DNA of 12,819 bases from a virus (Duplodnaviria; Heunggongvirae; Uroviricota; Caudoviricetes): the IMG/VR virus record IMGVR_UViG_2778260995_000007, positions 1 to 12,819 of that record; one strand, given 5' to 3'. Position numbers and translations under genes: made by a program. The stretch's first letter is position 1. Each line of letters opens with the position of its first letter. The notes under the pieces are model-generated. The model saw nothing but the letters and a program-made list of their open reading frames with translations, ran no database searches and had not been told where the DNA came from. Of this stretch, positions 1-11,521 are shown piece after piece.

Positions 1-117
1 GTTTCGCCGATTGTTTCCGGTGAGGTTATCCGTTCCCGTGGCGGCTCCACCTCTGAATTTACGCCGGGATATGTCAAACCCAAGCACTTAGCATGGCTTT
101 CTGAGGCTTTCGTGTAG
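1..117 (+). pseudogene. E: 5' fragment of lambda-type major capsid protein gene E; frame enters from upstream of the window, is broken after codons ...GYVKPKH (nt 87) and runs into element sequence to a TAG at 115-117
   Basis: Frame 1 translates VSPIVSGEVIRSRGGSTSEFTPGYVKPKH, which matches my recollection of lambda gpE; the continuation ...KPKHEVNPQMTLRRL is found at 10733 onward. Confidence 0.8.
77..86. repeat. Left copy of 10-bp direct repeat AACCCAAGCA (putative attL core)
   Basis: Identical 10-mer at 10731-10740; flanking bases differ on both sides. Confidence 0.6.
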
Positions 118-249
118 TTGCTGGTTTTTACACTTAATCTTTTGATAATAAAGAATAAGTTTATCTGGTGCTTTCACTGAATTTTCCTCGTTATCTGTGT
201 GTTGCAATCATCTCTGTATTGCAGCTTGTATTGCTTTTTGGGGCTAAAA

Positions 250-1485
250 ATGGCTGGCGAGAACAAACTGAGCGACAAAGCGCTTAAAGGATATCTGGGG
301 AAACCCAGAGAAAAGCAGATCACCATTGCTGATGGAAAGGGGCTTTCTATTCGTGTGAGTACTAAAGGGGCTGTGAGCTTTGTTTTCTTCTACAGGTTAG
401 CAGGTGGCCGGGCTGCTCCGGTCTGGCTAACGTTGGGTAAATATCCTGATATGTCACTCAAACAGGCAAGGGAAAAGCGCGACGAGTGCCGTGGTTGGTT
501 GGCTGACAAACGTGATCCGCGTATCCAGATAAAGATTCAGGCTGAAGAACGCTTAAAGCCGGTCACAGTGGAGGATGCACTAAATTACTGGTATGAAAAT
601 TACTGTAAGGTGCGTCGTAAAACTCATGCTGTAACGCTTGGCAGATTTCGAAAGCATATCTTTCCCTATATCGGTCATTTGCCCGTAAATGACACTCACC
701 TATATGAATGGCTGGACTGTTTTGACCGAATTAAACGTAATGCACCAGTTATGGCGGCGTATGTTTTTTCTGACACTAAATTAGCTCTTCGTTTTTGTCG
801 GGTACGCCAGTACGCGACGTGTGATGCTTTAAAGGATTTGCGCATGAGTGATGTGGGGCAGATTGCAGGTAAGCGGGATCGGGTTCTGGATGAAGCCGAA
901 CTCGGCCAGCTCTGGAAGGCAATTTTTGTCGAGCCTGATTTAAAACTAATGTCTGAATACACGCGAAAAATGTTTGTGCTTTGTACACTATTTGGATGTC
1001 GAATGAGTGAAGCCCGATTATCAGAATGGAGCGAATGGGATCTCGAAAGTTGGGTTTGGACTGTACCAAAAGATCACTCAAAAACTGGTGTTGAAATCGT
1101 CAGACCAGTACCTGAAATTCTACGACAGTGGGTAACGGATGTTCACGAAGAGACAAAACATACTGGTTATGTGCTGGGAAGTCTGCGAATTAGAGAAAGC
1201 GTAAGCAAGATTGGGGGGAAAATCGGTAAACGTTTGGGCCATGAAAAACAATGGTCACTACACGACCTTAGAAGAACGCTATCTACTCATCTAAGTGATC
1301 TCGGTGTTGAATTTTATGTAGTAGAACAACTGTTAGGCCATGCGCTACCTGGCGTGGCAGGTGTTTACAACCGGAGTAAGTTTATGGCTAAAAAACTGGA
1401 TGCTCTGGAACTCTGGACTACATATCTCAATAGCATCGCAGGTGCTGATTCAAAAGTGACAATCCTCAAACAAAAGGCTGGTTAA
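250..1485 (+). CDS. int: Tyrosine site-specific integrase, P4-type
   Basis: ORF 199-1485; start placed at ATG 250 (MAGENKLSDKALKGYL...). N-terminal region and C-terminal ...HDLRRT...LLGHA... motifs are typical of P4-family integrases; sits next to the attL repeat. Confidence 0.88.
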   Translation: MAGENKLSDKALKGYLGKPREKQITIADGKGLSIRVSTKGAVSFVFFYRLAGGRAAPVWLTLGKYPDMSLKQAREKRDECRGWLADKRDPRIQIKIQAEERLKPVTVEDALNYWYENYCKVRRKTHAVTLGRFRKHIFPYIGHLPVNDTHLYEWLDCFDRIKRNAPVMAAYVFSDTKLALRFCRVRQYATCDALKDLRMSDVGQIAGKRDRVLDEAELGQLWKAIFVEPDLKLMSEYTRKMFVLCTLFGCRMSEARLSEWSEWDLESWVWTVPKDHSKTGVEIVRPVPEILRQWVTDVHEETKHTGYVLGSLRIRESVSKIGGKIGKRLGHEKQWSLHDLRRTLSTHLSDLGVEFYVVEQLLGHALPGVAGVYNRSKFMAKKLDALELWTTYLNSIAGADSKVTILKQKAG

Positions 1486-1486
1486 C

Positions 1487-1714
1487 ATGAAAAAAATGGC
1501 AATTGTTGATAAAAAGGGTCTGGAGTACATTCCTAACATTGATCGTATGATCCGTGAGAAAGAATGTCGGGAGCTAACCACTCTTGCGAACAGCACACGC
1601 TGGAAGCTGGAGAAGGAAGGAAAATTTCCTAAGCGGATCAAGATTGGCGCTACTGCGGTAGCTTACCGTCTCTCCGAAGTTCAGGCATGGATTAGGGGGG
1701 AATGGCGGACATAA
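1487..1714 (+). CDS. alpA: AlpA-family HTH regulator / excisionase-like protein
   Basis: 75 aa; ...LTTLANSTRWKLEKEGKFPKRIKIGATAVAYRLSEVQAWI is a typical AlpA (Phage_AlpA) HTH; ATG lies 1 nt after the int stop, suggesting translational coupling. Confidence 0.8.
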   Translation: MKKMAIVDKKGLEYIPNIDRMIREKECRELTTLANSTRWKLEKEGKFPKRIKIGATAVAYRLSEVQAWIRGEWRT

Positions 1715-1750
1715 ATGTTGTAGTAAATTGTTATATAAAAGGGTGTAAGC

Positions 1751-2626
1751 ATGGCTACTCGAAAAAAAAATAGCGTAGAAATGAAAACTGTTTGTGAACT
1801 AATCATATCAAGAGATGATATGAAAGATAAAATTCAAGACAGAATTCAAAAAGGATTATTACTCCTACAGAAAAGCATAAATAACAATAGTGACTTGGAG
1901 CTGTTTAATGCTGATTACAGGAAATGGAGTGATTTTAATGCTGAGCTACTGAAGCGTAGTTTCACAAATGATGATTTCAAAGAAGAATATGAAGGTGGGG
2001 CATTTGGTGTTATTTCATTGTACGAGACTTCCTTGGGAGAAAAAATCAGTGAGGCTACGCGTAAACTCCAGAGTAAGATAAGAAAACTAGAGTCGATTAT
2101 GGAGCGACTGGAGTTAATTCCTATATCTTCCAAAGTTGTTGAAGAAAATATTGAAGTACCTCAGAGTTCAGCGGTAAAAACCAAAAAAGTATTCATTGTT
2201 CATGGAAGAGATGAAGTATCAAAAACCAACTTAGAAGTGTTTTTAAGAGAAATTGGCTTAGAACCTATTGTTCTCCATAGGCAAGCTGATGTAGGTCAGA
2301 CAGTGATTGAGAAATTTGAAGCAAATAGTGATGTTGGTTTCGCATTCATTCTTCTCACACCTGATGAGATCGCTTATTTATTTCCGCAAGACTCTTTACC
2401 TGATAATGAAAGAGAAAAGGAGTTACGTGCACGACCAAATGTAATGTTTGAATTTGGTTATTTCGTAGGGAAATTAGGTCGTTCTAAGGTTTGTTGTCTA
2501 TACACAGGTGATGTAGTGATTCCAAGTGATTTGAATGGTCTTATTTATAAAAAATTCAATTCTTCTATTGAAGAAGTAGCATATAGCATTATTAAAGACT
2601 TGCGAGCTACTGGTTACGCAGTTTAG
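1751..2626 (+). CDS. Cargo protein with an N-terminal helical region and a C-terminal TIR-like domain (resembles the COG4271/CAP12-type TIR-like fold); candidate anti-phage effector
   Basis: 291-aa ORF, visibly AT-rich compared with neighbours. C-terminal KKVFIVHGRDE...FAFILLTPDE...RARPNVMFEFGYFVGKLGRSKV matches the motif pattern I recall for TIR-like proteins. Not confirmed by search. Confidence 0.6.
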   Translation: MATRKKNSVEMKTVCELIISRDDMKDKIQDRIQKGLLLLQKSINNNSDLELFNADYRKWSDFNAELLKRSFTNDDFKEEYEGGAFGVISLYETSLGEKISEATRKLQSKIRKLESIMERLELIPISSKVVEENIEVPQSSAVKTKKVFIVHGRDEVSKTNLEVFLREIGLEPIVLHRQADVGQTVIEKFEANSDVGFAFILLTPDEIAYLFPQDSLPDNEREKELRARPNVMFEFGYFVGKLGRSKVCCLYTGDVVIPSDLNGLIYKKFNSSIEEVAYSIIKDLRATGYAV

Positions 2627-2655
2627 TAAATTCTTTGAACTAAAAATCTGCATAG

Positions 2656-2688
2656 ATATAGAGCCATTCGAGATAAATGGCTCTATAT
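2656..2688. terminator. Perfect 13-bp inverted repeat (ATATAGAGCCATT / AATGGCTCTATAT, 7-nt loop) between convergent genes; possible bidirectional terminator or protein-binding palindrome
   Basis: Seen directly; lies 30 nt after the stop of the 1751-2626 gene and 14 nt after the stop of the minus-strand RHH ORF. AT-rich stem, and a T-run on the minus strand only after a 9-nt spacer, so terminator function is uncertain. Confidence 0.4.
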
Positions 2689-2701
2689 GAAATATTATCT
2701 G

Positions 2702-2881
2702 TTAAATTTTGACTTCATATCCGCGTTGCTGTAGTTCTTTGCGAATAATCCTTTTAATCCAGGCTGCTAAAGATTCGTCTCCATCTACTTGCTGTGCTTG
2801 CTCCATCAACTCCCTCAACTCAGGATCTAACCGAAACTGGAACGGAGGATTACCACGTCTTTGATTTTTGTGTGTTGACAC
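2702..2881 (-). CDS. Small Arc/MetJ-like ribbon-helix-helix DNA-binding protein (59 aa from GTG 2881; a 34-aa version from ATG 2806 would lack the ribbon strand)
   Basis: Minus-strand translation VSTHKNQRRGNPPFQFRLDPELRELMEQAQQVDGDESLAAWIKRIIRKELQQRGYEVKI has an Arc-like strand-helix-helix pattern. Below the length cut-off of the supplied ORF track; start codon uncertain. Confidence 0.4.
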   Translation of the reverse strand: MSTHKNQRRGNPPFQFRLDPELRELMEQAQQVDGDESLAAWIKRIIRKELQQRGYEVKI

Positions 2882-2929
2882 GTCAATTACACCCGATGTA
2901 ATGTGTTAATGTGTGATGACACATTACAT
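2875..2929. promoter_or_regulatory. Promoter/operator region: plus-strand TTGACA (2875-2880) - 16 nt - TGTAAT (2897-2902); 11-bp inverted repeat ATGTAATGTGT (2896-2906) / ACACATTACAT (2919-2929) plus tandem TAATGTGT (2899-2906, 2907-2914)
   Basis: Seen directly in the intergenic region between the minus-strand RHH ORF and the plus-strand operon starting at 3012; palindrome arms overlap the candidate -10 elements. Confidence 0.4.
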
Positions 2930-2948
2930 ACGTGTTTAGGAAAATGCA

Positions 2949-2981
2949 ACGCCTCGACGTGCGGGAACACCATCGAGGCGT
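2949..2981 (+). promoter_or_regulatory. GC-rich hairpin in the 5' leader of the replication operon (9-bp stem ACGCCTCGA / TCGAGGCGT, 15-nt loop); no downstream U-tract
   Basis: Perfect inverted repeat seen directly, 30 nt upstream of ATG 3012. Confidence 0.3.
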
Positions 2982-3011
2982 CTAACCAACCCGTTAAATG
3001 AGGTAACGATT

Positions 3012-3377
3012 ATGGCTGGAACACAGCATACCCAAACTCACCCTAAATTTATATACACCTTTCTGGCACTACACCACGACCGCATGGCAGATGGAGCAAC
3101 TACGGTACATGTAGCCGCTGACACGCTGGTTGATGCCCGCAAGATGGTTAAGGAGATGGGCTATACTGCGGCTTTCTGGAAAGGGCGTGAAGAAAACACG
3201 CTGTTTATTCAGAAATGCGAAAACAATTTCATCTGGCGTTTTATCGCCCTGAGCACCGCACAACCACGCGTAATACACATCGAGGCCGCCAGCGAACAGG
3301 AAGCCCGGCTGCAATCCCCAACTGGCTACGTGATGATATTCGCCGCCCGTATTCGTCAGGAGGTGTGCCATGAATGA
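3012..3377 (+). CDS. Hypothetical protein, first gene of replication-module operon
   Basis: 121-aa ORF with GAGGT RBS 6 nt upstream; stop overlaps the next start. Confidence 0.65.
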   Translation: MAGTQHTQTHPKFIYTFLALHHDRMADGATTVHVAADTLVDARKMVKEMGYTAAFWKGREENTLFIQKCENNFIWRFIALSTAQPRVIHIEAASEQEARLQSPTGYVMIFAARIRQEVCHE

Positions 3378-3594
3378 TCTTTATTTTAAAGTGCTGACAC
3401 ATGCTGAAAACGCGCTCGTTTGTGGCAAAAATATGCGAGAAATCTTATCAACCTGGCTTGATGGGACAACAAATGCGGAACACGATGAACGGGATGCTAA
3501 TTTAGCTGGAGCGTTAATTACGTTACTTGATCCTGTCATCAAAGAGCTGGATGAAGCTATAAAAATACACGACCAGAGCTATACCGGAGAATAA
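3370..3594 (+). CDS. Hypothetical small protein
   Basis: 74-aa ORF; AGGAGG 4 nt upstream of ATG; 8-nt overlap with the upstream ORF. Confidence 0.6.
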   Translation: MNDLYFKVLTHAENALVCGKNMREILSTWLDGTTNAEHDERDANLAGALITLLDPVIKELDEAIKIHDQSYTGE

Positions 3595-3597
3595 AAA

Positions 3598-3885
3598 ATG
3601 AAAAATAAATTTTCTGGCTTTATTGCCAGCGGTCAAACTCATTCAAAAATCAGCCTTGGGGATATTTTCAAAGACAGCTATGGCTATCGGGTAAAGATTA
3701 TTTCGGTTGATGATCGTCGTGTCTCTTATTTGCGTGATGGTTATGATTTTGAATGTGTTATGCCGCGTCAGCAGTTCGAAAGAGATTTCATTCTGGTAAA
3801 AAATTGCAAGACAGATAATCAGAGGCGTGCCGCAGGCTATATCCGCAAAATTCGGGCAATGTTAGTTGCCGGAGGTAACAAATGA
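3598..3885 (+). CDS. Hypothetical small protein
   Basis: 95-aa ORF packed tightly between neighbours; stop overlaps the primase start (ATGA). Confidence 0.6.
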   Translation: MKNKFSGFIASGQTHSKISLGDIFKDSYGYRVKIISVDDRRVSYLRDGYDFECVMPRQQFERDFILVKNCKTDNQRRAAGYIRKIRAMLVAGGNK

Positions 3886-5633
3886 AACGTGCTCCGAACT
3901 TAAAATACCAACCGCGCGACAAAATGACAGAAGTCATCATTTTTGCTGGCAGTGATGCCTGGAGCCATGCAAAAGAATGGAATGAATGGGCGGGTAAGCA
4001 TATTGCCGCCGACGATGTGCCGCCTGTCGTGCTGGCTGATGAGCAACTGAAAAATATCACCGATTACCGGATCATTGATGAAGATCGTCAGTGTGTGCGT
4101 GTTTACCGCGCAGGACATATCACAGAGCACAGCATGACGCAGATTGTTACGTTACTGGCTGTGGCTGGAGTGAAGACCGTACACGAATACGCGGGGATTA
4201 CTGACACCAGCCCAGTGGATTTATCCGAGCAGTTGCCGCGACTCAAAGAGGAATGCGAGCGTGGGGAAAGTCTGGTGCTTAATCTTCCGACGAAGCAAAA
4301 GGCGCAACTTTCACAGATGGCAGACAGTGAACGTGCACAACTACTTGCCGATCGCTTTGATGGTGTGTGTGTTCATGCAGAAAGTGAAATCGTCCACGTA
4401 TGGCGCGGCGGGGTATGGTGTCCGGTCAGCACAATGGAGCTGAGCCGCGAAATGGTGGCGATCTATTCAGAGCACAGGGCCACGTTCAGCAAACGTGTAA
4501 TCAATAACGCCGTGGAAGCGTTAAAAGTTATTGCCGACCCCATGGGGGAGCCGTCCGGTGATTTGCTACCGTTCACTAATGGTGTGCTTAACCTGAAAAC
4601 GGGGGAATTTTCTCCGCACTCGCCGGAGCACTGGAGCACCACGCACAATGGCATTGAGTACACGCCACCAGTAGCAGGGGAAAACATCCGCGATAATGCG
4701 CCAAATTTCCATAAATGGCTTGAACATGCTGCAAGAAAAGACCCGCGCAAGATGATGCGTATATGTGCCGCGTTATACATGATTATGGCGAACCGCTACG
4801 ACTGGCAGATGTTCATTGAGGCCACCGGAGACGGGGGAAGCGGTAAGAGTACATTTACCCATATTGCCACCCTGCTTGCTGGCAAACAGAACACCGTAAG
4901 CGCGGAGATGACATCACTCGATGATGCAGGAGGGCGCGCGCAGGTTGTCGGGAGTCGTCTTATCGTCCTTGCCGATCAGCCGAAATATACGGGGGAAGGC
5001 ACGGGCATCAAGAAAATCACGGGAGGCGATCCCGTTGAAATTAACCCGAAATATGAGAAGCGATTCACGACGATAATAAGGGCGGTGGTACTGGCAACCA
5101 ATAACGACCCGATGATCTTTACCGAACGAGCCGGAGGTGTGTCACGCCGTCGGGTGATTTTCCGGTTCGACAACATTGTAAGGGAGGACGAAAAAGACAA
5201 GGAATTACCGGAAAAGATAGCGGCAGAAATCCCCGTAATTATCCGCCGCTTGCTGGCTAATTTTGCTGACCCTGAAAAGGCACGGGCTTTATTACTGGAA
5301 CAGCGTGACGGTGATGAAGCTCTGGCAATAAAGCAGCAAACGGATCCGGTTGTTGAGCTTTGCGCGGCGCTGGAGTTTCTGGAGGAAGCTCGTGGGCTAA
5401 TGATGGGCGGTGGTGGTGACACCGTGAAGTACACGACCAGAAACAGCCTTTACCGTGTCTATATGGCCTTCATGGCATACACAGGAAAGGGGAAATGTTT
5501 GAGCGTGAATGAGTTCGGAAAGGCTATGAGGTCAGCGGCGAAAGTTTACGGATATGAATATATTACGCGAAAAGTTAAGGGAGTCACGCAGACCAACGCA
5601 ACGACTACTGATGATTGCGATGCGTTTTTATAA
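3882..5633 (+). CDS. Replication initiator: primase-associated SF3 helicase-type protein (P4 alpha C-terminal / D5-like family; the pri-rep of PICI-type satellites)
   Basis: 583 aa; Walker A GDGGSGKST and a downstream hydrophobic strand ending in D (LIVLAD) typical of P4-family primase-helicase C-terminal domains; GGAGG RBS; followed by an iteron array. Confidence 0.85.
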   Translation: MKRAPNLKYQPRDKMTEVIIFAGSDAWSHAKEWNEWAGKHIAADDVPPVVLADEQLKNITDYRIIDEDRQCVRVYRAGHITEHSMTQIVTLLAVAGVKTVHEYAGITDTSPVDLSEQLPRLKEECERGESLVLNLPTKQKAQLSQMADSERAQLLADRFDGVCVHAESEIVHVWRGGVWCPVSTMELSREMVAIYSEHRATFSKRVINNAVEALKVIADPMGEPSGDLLPFTNGVLNLKTGEFSPHSPEHWSTTHNGIEYTPPVAGENIRDNAPNFHKWLEHAARKDPRKMMRICAALYMIMANRYDWQMFIEATGDGGSGKSTFTHIATLLAGKQNTVSAEMTSLDDAGGRAQVVGSRLIVLADQPKYTGEGTGIKKITGGDPVEINPKYEKRFTTIIRAVVLATNNDPMIFTERAGGVSRRRVIFRFDNIVREDEKDKELPEKIAAEIPVIIRRLLANFADPEKARALLLEQRDGDEALAIKQQTDPVVELCAALEFLEEARGLMMGGGGDTVKYTTRNSLYRVYMAFMAYTGKGKCLSVNEFGKAMRSAAKVYGYEYITRKVKGVTQTNATTTDDCDAFL

Positions 5634-6670: not shown

Positions 6671-6844
6671 ATGCTACATAAATCCCGACCAAAGGGAGTG
6701 AAGATATTAACACTAATTATCCGCGCTGAAGTTGTTATCCCAAAACTTTATACAACATTGCACTCGGTTGCATGTATTCGCATGACAAATATCGGTGATA
6801 GCATATATCCACAATTATTTTTAATGAATGCAAAGAGGATGCGT

Positions 6845-7885
6845 ATGGTCGATTTATATTCGCCTACCCAGCTTGTACAGGTGGTTAATGCTGTAGATGT
6901 ACAAAAACAACTAAATGCGTTGTTTACCAGTTTGTTTTTTACTCGCTCTGTAATGTTTGAATCGCGCGATATTATTCTTGATACAATCGACGATCCAAAT
7001 ATCCCAATTGCAGCGTTTTGTTCTCCTATGGTGGGTAGTAAAGTTTCACGTGACGAAGGGTACGAATCAAAAACAATTCGTCCAGGCTATATGAAGCCGA
7101 AAAGCAGCATTGATCCAAATAAGTTAGCTGTGCGCCCTGCTGGTGTATCACCTGAGCAATACAATGCTTTTGGAGCGCGTAATATTAAAGTTAAACAGGC
7201 GATTGTAAATCAGGCTAAAGCTATTCGTGCACGTATTGAATGGCTTGCCGTTCAGGCAATCACAACGGGGAAAAATATCATTGAGGGCGATGGTATTGAA
7301 CGTTATGAACTGGACTGGAATATAAAACCACAAAATATTATCACGCAGTCTGGCGGTGCTGAGTGGTCAGGTAAGGATAAAGAAACTTTTGATCCAAATG
7401 ATGATATTGAGAGCTACGCAGAATTTAGTGAGGGCGTCACTAATATCATCATTATGGGCGGTAATGTATGGAAGAAATACCGTTCATTCAGAGCGATAAA
7501 AGAGGCTCTGGATACCCGCCGTGGTTCTAATTCCGAACTGGAAACGGCCCTTAAAGACCTTGGTGATTCGGTGAGTTTTAAAGGGTATATGGGCGATGTT
7601 GCGATTGTTGTTTACAGCGGACGTTATACCGACGAGGACGGAACTGAAAAACATTTCCTTGATCCTGATTTGATGGTGCTTGGCAATACGGCTCTTCAGG
7701 GGATTGTCGCCTATGGCGGTATTCAGGATCCGGAGCTAACCCGAATGGGGCTGACTAAAGCCGAACTTGCACCGAAAAACTATATTGTGCCTGGTGATCC
7801 GGCTATTGAGTACGTACAAACGCACTCTGCACCACAGCCAATACCGGCCCGCATCAATCGTTTTGTTACCGTTCGCATTGGCTAA
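6845..7885 (+). CDS. Major capsid protein, diverged homologue of lambda gpE, encoded by the element
   Basis: Start moved to ATG 6845 (AAGAGG RBS), giving 346 aa, close to lambda E in size. Shares blocks with lambda E as I recall it: PGYMKPK, ITQSGGAEW, LDTRRGSNSELETA, GDVAIVVYSG, VLGNT, GDPA (roughly 40-50% identity by eye). Confidence 0.8.
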   Translation: MVDLYSPTQLVQVVNAVDVQKQLNALFTSLFFTRSVMFESRDIILDTIDDPNIPIAAFCSPMVGSKVSRDEGYESKTIRPGYMKPKSSIDPNKLAVRPAGVSPEQYNAFGARNIKVKQAIVNQAKAIRARIEWLAVQAITTGKNIIEGDGIERYELDWNIKPQNIITQSGGAEWSGKDKETFDPNDDIESYAEFSEGVTNIIIMGGNVWKKYRSFRAIKEALDTRRGSNSELETALKDLGDSVSFKGYMGDVAIVVYSGRYTDEDGTEKHFLDPDLMVLGNTALQGIVAYGGIQDPELTRMGLTKAELAPKNYIVPGDPAIEYVQTHSAPQPIPARINRFVTVRIG

Positions 7886-7894
7886 GGGGGAGCA

Positions 7895-8236
7895 ATGGCT
7901 ACTCATTACACTGAACTCATGTCTGGCACTGAAGCACTGGTTACTACGCTGGGGATATTTTCAGCCAATAAAGGGGTAATACCTGCGTTTACGCCACTGA
8001 TGCAGGAAGATGCAACTGGTGCGCTAGTGGTATGGGATGGAACGAGCGCAGGCAAAGCGGTTTATGTTTCCGCTGTACAAATCGACACAGCGAAAAAAAC
8101 ACAGGCACAGGTTTATAAGACAGGTGTTTTAAATGTTGATGCTCTGAACTGGCCTGAGTCTGTAAGAGAACTGTCGGCAAAGGTTGCCGCGTTTGTTGGC
8201 TCAGGTATTTCTGTTCAGCCGCTGGCTCGTGTGTAA
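7895..8236 (+). CDS. Head decoration protein, homologue of lambda gpD
   Basis: 113 aa; ...PAFTPLMQEDATGALVVWDGTSAGKAV...YKTGVLNVDALNWPE...AAFVGSGISV parallels lambda D (...PAMTPLM...LVAWDGTTDGAAV...YKSGTFRYEDVLWPE...TAFAGTAISIV); AAGGGGGA RBS. Confidence 0.8.
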   Translation: MATHYTELMSGTEALVTTLGIFSANKGVIPAFTPLMQEDATGALVVWDGTSAGKAVYVSAVQIDTAKKTQAQVYKTGVLNVDALNWPESVRELSAKVAAFVGSGISVQPLARV

Positions 8237-8247
8237 AGGGGGATACA

Positions 8248-8631
8248 ATGCAGAATCATTACAATGACCTTAAGCCAATTGCCGAAATGATGTACCCGAA
8301 TCCAGCTGTAGAGGAATTAAAAGCTATCGCTGACAAAATGTGTTTAAGCGAGCGCCTTGTTGATATGAATCAGGTGATGGAAATTACAACCCTGAGTCGG
8401 CGTACACTGCTAAACCTTGAGGCTAGTGGAGAGTTCCCGGAGCGTGTGCAGGTTACGGAAGGGCGTAAGGCCTGGTATTTAAGTGAAGTGATCGACTGGA
8501 TAAATAATATTCCTCGCGCTTCTGAATATTGCCGCGTACCTGTCCCAAAAAAGCCAGATGCGGCGCTATGCCTCAAGATTGAGCGTGTACGCCGCAATGC
8601 ACGGGATGGTCGCTATAAGCTGATTGGTTGA
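8248..8631 (+). CDS. AlpA/MerR-like HTH DNA-binding protein, larger than a typical AlpA, function unknown
   Basis: 127 aa; central ...MEITTLSRRTLLNLEASGEFPERVQVTEGRKAWYLSEVIDWI is an AlpA-type HTH; AAAGGGGGA RBS; follows the capsid genes. Confidence 0.65.
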   Translation: MQNHYNDLKPIAEMMYPNPAVEELKAIADKMCLSERLVDMNQVMEITTLSRRTLLNLEASGEFPERVQVTEGRKAWYLSEVIDWINNIPRASEYCRVPVPKKPDAALCLKIERVRRNARDGRYKLIG

Positions 8632-9287
8632 TGAAATTAGGGCCCGCTCTGGCTGGCGGGTCCTTTCCGGCGATCCAGAACGTTACGGGGCGTCAGGCGC
8701 GCAGTTTTTTGCTATTTATGAAAATTTTCCGGTTTAAAGCGTTTCCGTTCTTCTTCGCCGTAACTTAATGTTTTTATTAGAAACACCCACTAAAAAGAAA
8801 GGAAACAACAGATGCTGAAAACGTGTTTTTTGGACAGTGTCGTTTCCTTTCTCTGGTTTTGTTGCCGTCTGTCGCGGTCTGTCACCAGAAAAAACTCTCA
8901 CCCCTGCGTTGAATCAGGCTCTACACTAAAGTAGACAATAACGCGCCGCTGGCTTCGCTTCATGGTCGTGGCCTACTTCTGCACTATCGCAACAGCCTTA
9001 TGCGCCCTGCTGGTGAGCTATTGAGTAAGCAGAATGCGGATTACAAGGCATCCTATGCGTTTTGTGGCGTACCGAACACAACCGCTCAGGTGAATCCCGT
9101 TTTGTTAGTTTATGGAAAGAGCCGTATCGGGGGCGCAATCATTTCTGCGTGGATCTATGTCGAAGACAAAATGTGGTATGCGCATCTGGCCGGAGGGTGA
9201 GCAATTTATCAGGGAAGTATCATCTCTACAGGTTTAAGACAACCAGAAGAAGTTATCGAGCAAGTTGGGTATGAAGATTTTCCTATA

Positions 9288-9551
9288 ATGGTAACGTTTA
9301 AGATTCCGGTGTTTGGTATCGTGGTGGGAACATGGAGGAATGTGGATCCGGCAAAATCATTCGGTTTTTTCCGTCAATTCATTGTGGACTGGGATTAGGA
9401 GAGTGTGCTTACTGACCAAGCTCTTAAGGGATATTTATATGCTTACCTAGGCACTGATGAAGCACTTTTCAAATGCTGGGCGGATTATATGAAATGCAGA
9501 TTGGCAGAAAATGAACATAGGTTTAAAAAATATACTGAGACTGTAAACTGA
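9288..9551 (+). pseudogene. Possible decayed ORF: 87-codon frame broken by an in-frame TAG at 9396-9398, no RBS
   Basis: Translation MVTFKIPVFGIVVGTWRNVDPAKSFGFFRQFIVDWD*ESVLTDQALKGYLYAYLGTDEALFKCWADYMKCRLAENEHRFKKYTETVN*; sits in a ~1 kb stretch (8632-9676) without convincing genes. Confidence 0.2.
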
Positions 9552-9676
9552 GTTCGCTGTGATTTAATTCGTGATTTAATCGAAGAGAGGAAAGTGAAAT
9601 GAGCCCTGCTAAGGGCCGCATCTTTATATTGAACGACTTATCACTAGATTAGGAAATCACTTCGAATGATATGCTG

Positions 9677-10549
9677 TTACTTTATAATTCCGTCTTTGAA
9701 AACCATTTTCTTAGCGCCAGAGGTATAGTTTTGAACAATTCCCAATAACTCTTTTGAATAGTCAATTGTAGAAATTGTCTCTGCCGGTTTGTTATATGTG
9801 TAATTAAGTGAGTAACCTCTCAGCTTTAATCTTAAATCACCATTTTCTAACTCTAAATAAGCGTCGGTTAGCTCTTCTTTGTAAGTGCCTGCACCATATT
9901 GGATGTTAGGTACTCTCGCGGATAAGGAGTTTTCTAAGTCGCAGAGAGAATACTTGTCGTGGGTAGTATTATCAACGATGAATATTTGGTTGTTAAGTAG
10001 TCGACTGAACCTTGAATTTAAATCATCTATGTTTAAATTTTTTTGCGACTCAAGCCAGCTTGCATCTATCATTGGTGAGAATGCAGTTATTCTGGGGGGA
10101 GTTATCGCGACGATATTCAATTGAATAGTTTTGATAAGTGGTGTTCCATCTGGCGCGCGCCAGTCTTCGTTATCAGCTTCACGAACTATTAGAAGGTCAA
10201 TTTTATATTGTTCGGCTTTTTTTTGAGCCCCACTTTGATACCCTGTTTTGGTTGCATAAATTAGTCTTAGGCCGGGAATATCTGCTGTTTTTCCGATGAA
10301 TGCGTCAATTTTCTCGATACTTACACTTGAAGCGTAGTCTTTGCATTCGATTACGGTCTTATATTCATAACCTCCTAAGTTAAATTCCCAATACACATCG
10401 AATTGCCTAGTTATGCCGTTTTTATCTACGATTTTTTTGTTTACTTCAACGGTGATGTTTTTCAAGTGAGAAATTTTCTCAGCTTGTATCAAGCTTTGAT
10501 GAATCGCCCCAACAAATTCCTCATAATCTCTGCCAGTGTTTTTAGTCAT
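9677..10549 (-). CDS. Mrr-type restriction-endonuclease-like (PD-(D/E)xK) protein with an uncharacterised C-terminal domain; candidate defence nuclease
   Basis: Start placed at ATG 10549 (GAGG RBS 8 nt upstream; the track's 10567 start is TTG), 290 aa. N-terminal half shows a PD-(D/E)xK pattern (...QFDVYWEF...YKTVIECKDY...SIEKIDAFIGK...LIYATKTGYQSGA...). Visibly AT-rich. Confidence 0.75.
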   Translation of the reverse strand: MTKNTGRDYEEFVGAIHQSLIQAEKISHLKNITVEVNKKIVDKNGITRQFDVYWEFNLGGYEYKTVIECKDYASSVSIEKIDAFIGKTADIPGLRLIYATKTGYQSGAQKKAEQYKIDLLIVREADNEDWRAPDGTPLIKTIQLNIVAITPPRITAFSPMIDASWLESQKNLNIDDLNSRFSRLLNNQIFIVDNTTHDKYSLCDLENSLSARVPNIQYGAGTYKEELTDAYLELENGDLRLKLRGYSLNYTYNKPAETISTIDYSKELLGIVQNYTSGAKKMVFKDGIIK

Positions 10550-10730
10550 TGTGCAGCCTCGTTCCAATCATCAGAGTAACGGTTAAATATTTATACACCT
10601 TGAATCTATGAACAGATTTATGTCACTTCACGCTGTATTGCACGCTGTATTGCATTAAGGAGGAATAATGTCGATTTGATGATGTTTTATCAAGTAAATT
10701 CATTCACATCCTTTCATATTTGACTCATGT

Positions 10731-10740
10731 AACCCAAGCA
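10731..10740. repeat. Right copy of 10-bp direct repeat AACCCAAGCA (putative attR core)
   Basis: Identical to 77-86; the E reading frame resumes directly here (CCC AAG CAT GAG GTG = P K H E V). Confidence 0.6.
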
Positions 10741-11521
10741 TGAGGTGAATCCGCAGATGACCCTGCGTCGCCTGCCGGATGAAGATCCGCAGAATCTGGC
10801 GGACCCAGCTTACCGCCGCCGTCGCATCATCATGCAGAACATGCGTGACGAAGAGCTGGCCATTGCTCAGGTCGAAGAGATGCAGGCAGTTTCTGCCGTG
10901 CTTAAGGGCAAATACACCATGACCGGTGAAGCCTTCGATCCGGTTGAGGTGGATATGGGCCGCAGTGCGGCGAATAACATCACGCAGTCCGGCGGCACGG
11001 AGTGGAGCAAGCGTGACAAGTCCACGTATGACCCGACCGACGATATCGAAGCCTACGCGCTGAACGCCAGCGGTGTGGTGAATATCATCGTGTTTGATCC
11101 GAAAGGCTGGGCGCTGTTCCGTTCCTTCAAAGCCGTCAAGGAGAAGCTGGATACCCGTCGTGGCTCTAATTCCGAGCTGGAGACAGCGGTGAAAGACCTG
11201 GGTAAAGCGGTGTCCTATAAGGGGATGTATGGCGATGTTGCCATCGTCGTGTATTCCGGACAGTACGTGGAAAACGGTGTCAAAAAGAACTTCCTGCCGG
11301 ACAACACGATGGTGCTGGGGAACACTCAGGCACGCGGTCTGCGTACCTATGGCTGTATTCAGGATTCGGACGCACAGCGCGAAGGCATTAACGCATCTGC
11401 CCGTTACCCGAAAAACTGGGTGACCACCGGCGATCCGGCGCGTGAGTTCACCATGATTCAGTCAGCACCGCTGATGCTGCTGGCTGACCCTGATGAGTTC
11501 GTGTCCGTACAACTGGCGTAA
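10733..11521 (+). pseudogene. E: 3' fragment of lambda-type major capsid protein gene E (from ...KPKHEVNPQMTLRRL to the C-terminus)
   Basis: Translation matches my recollection of the lambda gpE C-terminal ~260 aa almost residue for residue; an in-frame TAA at 10730-10732 closes the frame upstream. Confidence 0.85.

Follow-up and report, generated by a model that had tools for sequence, protein, structure and literature searches.

A predicted lambda-type cos site beside two decayed genes in a probable capE-type phage satellite

The satellite and its host prophage

The window analysed here, the whole 12,819-nt stretch of the viral record IMGVR_UViG_2778260995_000007, carries two parts of one interrupted gene: a lambda-E-type major capsid protein is encoded in part at positions 1-87 (residues 54-82, 100% identity) and in part at 10733-11518 (residues 80-341, 98.9% identity). 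The insertion point thus corresponds to codon ~80 of the lambda-E-like major capsid gene of a lambdoid prophage, and the 10-bp identity block of the capE site group is present at both ends. Near-identical and related genomes have the same layout, the element being flanked, within a lambdoid prophage, by gene D on one side and the 3' part of gene E on the other, with FI, FII and the tail genes coming next. The E. coli strains SCU-316, HYM1 and T-HYM1 carry this element. The island itself encodes an integrase, an AlpA-like protein, a primase, an SSB, a Phage_cap_E capsid protein, an HDPD decoration protein and a second AlpA-family HTH protein. Judged from the ORFs, the annotation of near-identical genomes and the Pfam matches to Phage_cap_E and HDPD, this is the gene content of HE-PICIs: int with AlpA, replication genes (primase, SSB), and a Late zone with a capsid gene of its own. 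The features that frame the stretch of interest are the following:

77-86, attL copy of the 10-bp identity block
6671-7885, Phage_cap_E capsid gene of the satellite (Pfam)
7895-8236, HDPD decoration gene of the satellite (Pfam)
8248-8631, plus strand, AlpA-family winged-HTH gene of 127 aa, directly upstream of the cos sequence (Pfam Phage_AlpA, E = 7.6e-9; AlpA, PDB 8c3t, E = 2e-9)
9677-10567, minus strand, Mrr_cat-type restriction endonuclease-like cargo gene, intact, 81% identical to the 290-aa gene of Citrobacter relatives
10730-10739, plus strand, attR identity block AACCCAAGCA

The capE site group of HE-PICIs has already been described (Tommasini, Mageeney, Williams 2023; PMC10111431), and the kilobase between the HTH and nuclease genes, which follows the capsid, decoration and HTH genes in the satellite's 3' portion, occupies a position equivalent to the dynamic Late zone of that study. 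We consider it highly probable that the window contains a capE-type helper-embedded PICI of ~10.6 kb, and that this kilobase consists of a lambda-type cos sequence and the decayed remains of two genes.

Several further properties of the island were observed. In the 6671-8236 region, the capsid gene of the satellite is E-like, with 42% identity to lambda E, and is accompanied by a D-like decoration gene (~40%), while the E gene of the helper is interrupted. A doubled motif, CTGTATTGCA / GCTGTATTGCA, is repeated on both sides of the att core (214-234 and 10632-10653), and probably corresponds to the doubled motif described by Tommasini et al. as specific to the attP of HE-PICIs. The two AlpA-family HTH genes of the island are located at 1487-1714 and 8248-8631; the second always abuts the cos sequence, accompanied by a hairpin that has cosQ as its 3' arm. 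It is 96-100% conserved among related satellites, in the order HDPD-HTH-cos. The cargo between cos and attR varies by lineage, comprising the Mrr_cat nuclease in the window (9677-10567), a 321-aa hypothetical protein in 07-4299 (L002, 10896-11861) and a TIR-domain protein in IAI39 (L008, 4371-5513), in agreement with the 3' immune hotspot known from PICIs. The nuclease has no match in PADLOC or NCBIfam, and a weak one in PHROGs (E = 0.005). In the variable zone after int and alpA, a 291-aa ORF (1751-2626, plus strand) matches the PADLOC candidate defence family PDC-S35 (E = 5e-67) as well as TIR effector models, and looks like a putative defence gene in the 5' hotspot of the island.

Composition of the kilobase between the HTH and nuclease genes

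A first, sequence-only reading of this DNA had found no convincing gene in the interval bounded by the HTH gene (8248-8631) and the minus-strand nuclease gene (9677-10567). This is correct: the ORFs in between encode at most 70 aa, and none exceeds a Pfam threshold. The same reading, however, had treated the kilobase as a single entity, whereas it is a mosaic of unrelated parts:

8639-8664, plus strand, GC-rich hairpin after the HTH stop codon (10-bp stem, 6-nt loop), with cosQ in its 3' arm
8658-8664, plus strand, cosQ heptamer GGGTCCT by alignment to lambda, 29 nt ahead of the final base preceding the predicted nick in the top strand, an offset as in lambda
8677-8710, plus strand, cosN region, with the predicted equivalent of the 12-nt cohesive end, GGGCGTCAGGCG, at 8688-8699
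8687, equivalent of the last base of lambda's right end
8740-8755, plus strand, cosB element R3, CGTTTCCGTTCTTCTT, which matches lambda R3 exactly and is as far from cosN as in lambda (position 53-68)
8756-8794, unstranded, I1 region between R3 and R2, predicted IHF bend site with IHF-consensus matches
8795-8810, minus strand, cosB element R2, inverted, by alignment to lambda; left arm of a 10-bp stem
8838-8852, plus strand, cosB element R1, by alignment to lambda; right arm of that stem
8867-9002, unstranded, post-cos block in place of nu1/terS, with no conserved reading frame
9003-9200, plus strand, 3' remnant of a 203-aa gene resembling lambda tail assembly protein I
9157-9551, plus strand, pseudogene of a 128-aa hypothetical-protein family (tblastn), starting at ATG 9157 or 9178
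9552-9676, unstranded, convergent intergenic spacer with a direct repeat, an inverted repeat (9553-9565 / 9654-9666) and a terminator-like hairpin
9559-9568 and 9571-9580, tandem of two GTGATTTAAT copies, 12 nt apart
9617-9602, minus strand, terminator-like hairpin, 60 nt past the nuclease stop codon

The identification of the first part comes from homology to phages. Among 50,697 phage records, 127 lambdoid phages match the window, exclusively at 8656-8868 and with 85-88% identity, in unannotated DNA that lies just upstream of Nu1 in the records inspected; no phage match extends beyond 8868. When the window is aligned base by base with the circularised ends of lambda, and likewise with the cos of a lambdoid phage located upstream of Nu1, the sequences are collinear from cosQ to R1. 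By this comparison, 8656-8866 is a complete predicted lambda-type cos, with cosQ, cosN, R3, I1, R2 and R1 in the order, orientation and spacing of lambda. Measured from the nick, the offsets of cosQ (-29), R3 (53-68) and R2 (108) equal those of lambda, whose cosQ we take to be at 48473-48479 (work of the Feiss laboratory). At cosN, TTACG/GGGCG......./CGC aligns to lambda without gaps, and seven of the 12 overhang bases are the same, including G2 and C11, as a matter of positional homology only; the predicted nicks are 12 nt apart and their flanks are conserved. The best IHF-consensus matches in I1 (8766-8778, and 8761-8773 on the minus strand) are identical to those at the homologous positions in lambda, and R3, R2 and R1 match both lambda and the helper prophage of a genome that is near-identical in this region. 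The cosQ heptamer and the cores of R2 and R1 do not differ from lambda at any base.

The site nevertheless differs from lambda cos in several respects. Its overhang is GGGCGTCAGGCG instead of GGGCGGCGACCT, which amounts to differences at five of 12 positions; R2 and R1 are 1 nt closer together than in lambda, as they also are in phage YDC107_1; there is no nu1 gene after it; and it is preceded by the AlpA-type HTH gene and the hairpin, not by a phage lysis region.

Two structural elements that had been noticed without recognition of their context, the stem as part of cosB and the hairpin as overlapping cosQ, belong to this site. Since the alignment to lambda is collinear there, the 10-bp stem is the pair formed by R2 and R1, whose lambda counterparts are binding sites of the terminase small subunit gpNu1 (PMC6739421). 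The stem is real and even longer than described, reaching 15 nt (8796-8810 / 8838-8852) with 93% complementarity, and as a conserved R2/R1 pair it is far from chance. The GC-rich hairpin is likewise present, although it folds as 8639-8648 / 8655-8664 and not within the 8643-8662 originally given. It is conserved in satellites, where two variants would turn a C-G pair of the stem into U-G, but at -19.2 kcal/mol (z = -0.83) its stability is unremarkable for its composition. We rejected it as an intrinsic terminator, as it is not followed by a U-run and the terminator scan makes no call.

Beyond the cos sequence, phage homology ends. The 8860-9130 stretch occurs in only 36 of 5426 E. coli genomes; the remaining E. 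coli matches (943 genomes in total) cover the cos part only and are mostly ordinary lambdoid prophages. Because single-nucleotide indels separate three lineages, 8867-9002 contains no conserved reading frame, and for the same reason we rejected a coding potential of 8867-9118, where 07-4299 has an 82-aa ORF.

The origin of the next part becomes apparent from four Citrobacter capE satellites, in which the intact order is capsid, HDPD, AlpA-like HTH, cos, Nu1-like terS (169 aa), a 203-aa gene, a 128-aa gene, the 290-aa nuclease gene on the minus strand, and attR. In tblastn searches with the proteins of these relatives, terS left no trace in the window, while the 203-aa protein matches 9003-9170 with its residues 148-202 (68% identity, E = 1e-16). 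The intact homologue contains a Lambda_tail_I domain above the Pfam cut-off (E = 2e-5). In the window, the 5' part of this gene is missing and its normal stop is lost, so that the frame continues to a TGA at 9198-9200; NCBI PGAP independently labels 9003-9200 as a pseudogene without an N-terminus. For the 128-aa protein, residues 6-18 align to 9181-9219 and residues 19-128 to 9219-9548 in another frame, indicating a 1-nt deletion in codon 19 (~9220), and an amber codon, TAG 9396-9398, stands where the homologues have a conserved Gln. Both lesions are common to all close copies, and an uninterrupted frame of ~128 codons, as in the family itself (P0002-P0009), does not occur in the window. The conceptual translation of the broken frame matches hypothetical proteins of 127-130 aa from Citrobacter, Pluralibacter and metagenome or read assemblies with 54-66% identity, and an 87-aa ORF with 98% identity to the broken frame has Gln in place of the amber. 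Neither the 128-aa nor the 203-aa homologue has a match in the PHROGs, PADLOC and NCBIfam libraries scanned, and the reconstructed pseudogene product has none among plasmids by tblastn. We also considered, and rejected, a link of the lost gpI-like gene to the Tai tail-assembly-inhibition systems of PICIs, as Tai is published as lying beside pri and not at this location.

Read from these alignments, 9003-9551 is what decay has left of two genes of which relatives retain intact copies, and the gpI-like remnant and the 128-aa pseudogene are apparently non-functional leftovers of a captured late-gene cluster. The amber-interrupted frame first seen at 9288-9551 is thus real, and it extends upstream to ~9003 via the TGA at 9198-9200 and the frameshift at ~9220. 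A search for intact homologues of this frame in related elements had been suggested at the outset, with an intact collinear gene as grounds for abandoning more exotic readings; such homologues exist, collinear, in the four Citrobacter loci. Two of the three explanations offered earlier for the kilobase therefore each apply to a part of it: packaging or regulatory DNA to the complete lambda-type cos at 8656-8866, and decayed cargo to 9003-9551, where both genes are intact and collinear in relatives.

In the remaining spacer, the tandem repeat reported at 9559-9581 consists of two exact GTGATTTAAT copies. The motif is not enriched in the window, with three matches at up to one mismatch versus 1.25 expected, a number equalled in 25 of 200 shuffles, and the tandem is present solely in near-identical copies of the element and absent from the Citrobacter relative. 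From its terminator-like hairpin, the 9552-9676 spacer probably serves to terminate the convergent nuclease gene.

The third explanation was a non-coding RNA locus, that is, a structured RNA (such as an immunity or antisense RNA of the P4 CI/seqA kind) of which the hairpins would be the structure. It would agree with the absence of a credible ORF and the presence of several stems, with a z of -2.46 for the minus-strand fold of 9545-9680, and with the C4/isrK-type RNAs reported for some HE-PICIs, albeit in the Bro zone. Yet the strongest stem is the R2/R1 protein-binding pair, which is also found in phage cos, the 8639-8664 hairpin is no better than shuffles, and fold energies in general are unexceptional. 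A covariance scan with Rfam 15 yielded no match at the gathering threshold in the whole window, nor at E ≤ 1 in 8550-9750, and a tRNA/tmRNA scan found nothing. Moreover, the lineages are separated by single-nucleotide indels, and 9119-9676, whose intergenic portion shows no conservation in the Citrobacter relatives, occurs in just three of the 5426 E. coli genomes. We therefore regard an RNA locus as very unlikely.

Across the junction of the two remnants, a 182-bp segment (9115-9296, compared with L002 10473-10654) reaches from the final part of the gpI-like remnant into the first part of the 128-aa pseudogene. Relative to the window, this segment is inverted in 17 E. coli genomes, at 89% identity, as would be expected of an invertible switch that takes opposite orientations in different strains. 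The orientation is fixed by lineage, however, with one in all 17 genomes of the 88% group and the other in all three of the 99% group, and the junctions share just GTTA-type microhomology, without long inverted repeats. As the orientation in the window is collinear with the intact Citrobacter genes, the other one represents a one-off rearrangement of already dead DNA; a switch is thus extremely improbable, and we ruled it out on account of the lineage-fixed orientation.

Conservation of cos and its pairing with terS

In 31 unique sequences of the lambda-cosB type, cosQ and the cores of R2 and R1 are invariant, while the R2-R1 spacer is variable; the conservation of cosN and R3 in this set is not countable as evidence, because both served as retrieval filters. 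Over its whole length, cos is 88.6% identical between the window and the 07-4299 lineage, compared with 90.4% for the adjacent junk. The GGGCGTCAGGCG overhang is invariant across three satellite lineages.

Among 89 satellites retrieved by their left flank, the type of cosB agrees in every case with the downstream terS gene. The satellite-type cosB is paired with a satellite Nu1-like gene in 47 of 47 loci, and the lambda-type cosB either with a lambda-like Nu1 (eight loci) or with no terS at all (24 loci, the class of the window). A related pattern emerged for cosN in 95 IMG/VR satellites that were retrieved independently of cosN and scored for cosN and cosB (the loci behind the cosN comparison being window 8688-8699, L014-L110, L006 5540-5600 and L071). 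The variant overhang occurs in 50 of the 95 and that of lambda in 39. Lambda-type cosB co-occurs solely with the variant GGGCGTCAGGCG overhang (33/33 loci), lambda-type cosN is nearly always found with a satellite-specific cosB and the satellite's own terS (36/39), and the combination of lambda-type cosN with lambda-type cosB was met in none of the 95.

The helper prophages in SCU-316 and 07-4299 carry lambda's GGGCGGCGACCT, and the satellites embedded in them are related to the window, one of them being near-identical here; in these two genomes, the cohesive ends of the helper are accordingly not complementary to those of the embedded satellite. It is conceivable, though in our estimation improbable, that capE satellites are selected never to bear a cos identical to that of their helper. 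If so, this avoidance could prevent viable hybrid chromosomes from arising through the two cos sites that a helper-satellite composite has as direct repeats, or alternatively could keep satellite and helper ends from annealing. True phages whose Nu1 is 98-99% identical to lambda's also have the variant cosN (L024, L057, L068), and the simplest reading is that the cos was captured from such a variant-cosN phage, with the cosN/cosB pattern resulting from linkage and sampling.

Packaging by a helper terminase and relation to known elements

The satellite relatives have a nu1-like terS, which the window has lost, and no Rpp is detectable, suggesting a direct dependence on a helper whose Nu1 reads the lambda-type cosB. 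Most likely, then, the satellite would be packaged by a helper terminase whose Nu1 binds the lambda-type R elements directly. In this proposal, the satellite would be excised after induction and then acted on by the helper terminase, the small subunit Nu1 of which would bind the lambda-type R elements, with R3 being identical to that of lambda, while IHF would bend the DNA at I1. The large subunit gpA would introduce staggered nicks into cosN, cutting the top strand at 8687/8688 and, 12 nt away, the bottom strand at 8699/8700, and satellite DNA would be packaged rightwards until cosQ-dependent termination at the next satellite cos. Because the overhang differs at five of 12 positions, efficient nicking of the satellite cosN by the helper is only assumed.

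One could alternatively argue that the cos-like segment is a dead relic, captured together with nu1 and other late genes and no longer used in packaging. The neighbouring captured genes are indeed deleted or broken, in both related genomes examined cosN mismatches the one in the helper prophage, cos is no more conserved between lineages than the neighbouring junk, and Tommasini et al. (2023) did not detect virions from their model composite (PMC10111431). Against this, all six sub-elements are intact and have lambda spacing, the cosQ, R2 and R1 cores have stayed constant while spacers drift, and the cosB type follows the terS type. The cosN variant is also that of phages with a Nu1 98-99% identical to lambda's, and a satellite without cos could not spread, yet the family is common (97 IMG/VR contigs). 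On balance, a relic appears unlikely to us, and packaging by the helper terminase the better account.

Much of this has already been described. Eco567.11capE resembles the window in element type, integration site (codon ~80 of E, with the 10-bp identity block) and gene order, and has a cos-like segment of ~258 bp, ~90% identical to the cos of its helper, at the equivalent position (PMC10111431). That study did not dissect the sub-elements or a difference in cosN from the helper, and the window differs from Eco567.11capE in its cargo, an Mrr-like nuclease with the remnants of the gpI-like and 128-aa genes. The element family and a cos-like segment at this position are thus already known, and what lies beside it are ordinary pseudogenes. 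The Citrobacter satellites (L010-L013) share the backbone of capsid, decoration and HTH genes, cos, nuclease and attR, but their cosB is non-lambda and matches a Nu1-like terS of their own, and their 203-aa and 128-aa genes are intact.

A different solution to the lack of terS is known from EcCICFT073, with its cos1 and Rpp (Fillol-Salom et al. 2019; PMC6739421). Like the window, it is a cos-type PICI of Gram-negative bacteria that lacks its own terS, has a phage-like cosQ and cosN, and needs the helper terminase, but its cosB is of a non-phage type and is read by an Rpp-TerS heterodimer (PMC6739421). The cosB of the window is lambda's own and does not diverge from the R elements of the helper, and no island-encoded Rpp homologue is detectable by sequence: with the RppC entries 6HLK and 6HN7, neither the 127-aa HTH protein nor six other small ORFs gave a match at E ≤ 10, a comparison made at the sequence level only.

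For the annotation of such elements, it follows that a packaging site and pseudogenes account for a seemingly empty kilobase of a prophage-embedded island, without the need for a new RNA or system. To the published family, the analysis adds a branch that has no small terminase of its own, a helper-type cosB and no Rpp; it also adds that the type of cosB tracks the type of terS, and that the cohesive ends differ from those of the helper in the two genomes checked. Together, the loss of terS, the cosB type and the cohesive-end details predict which helpers can mobilise an island that carries a nuclease and TIR-like defence genes.
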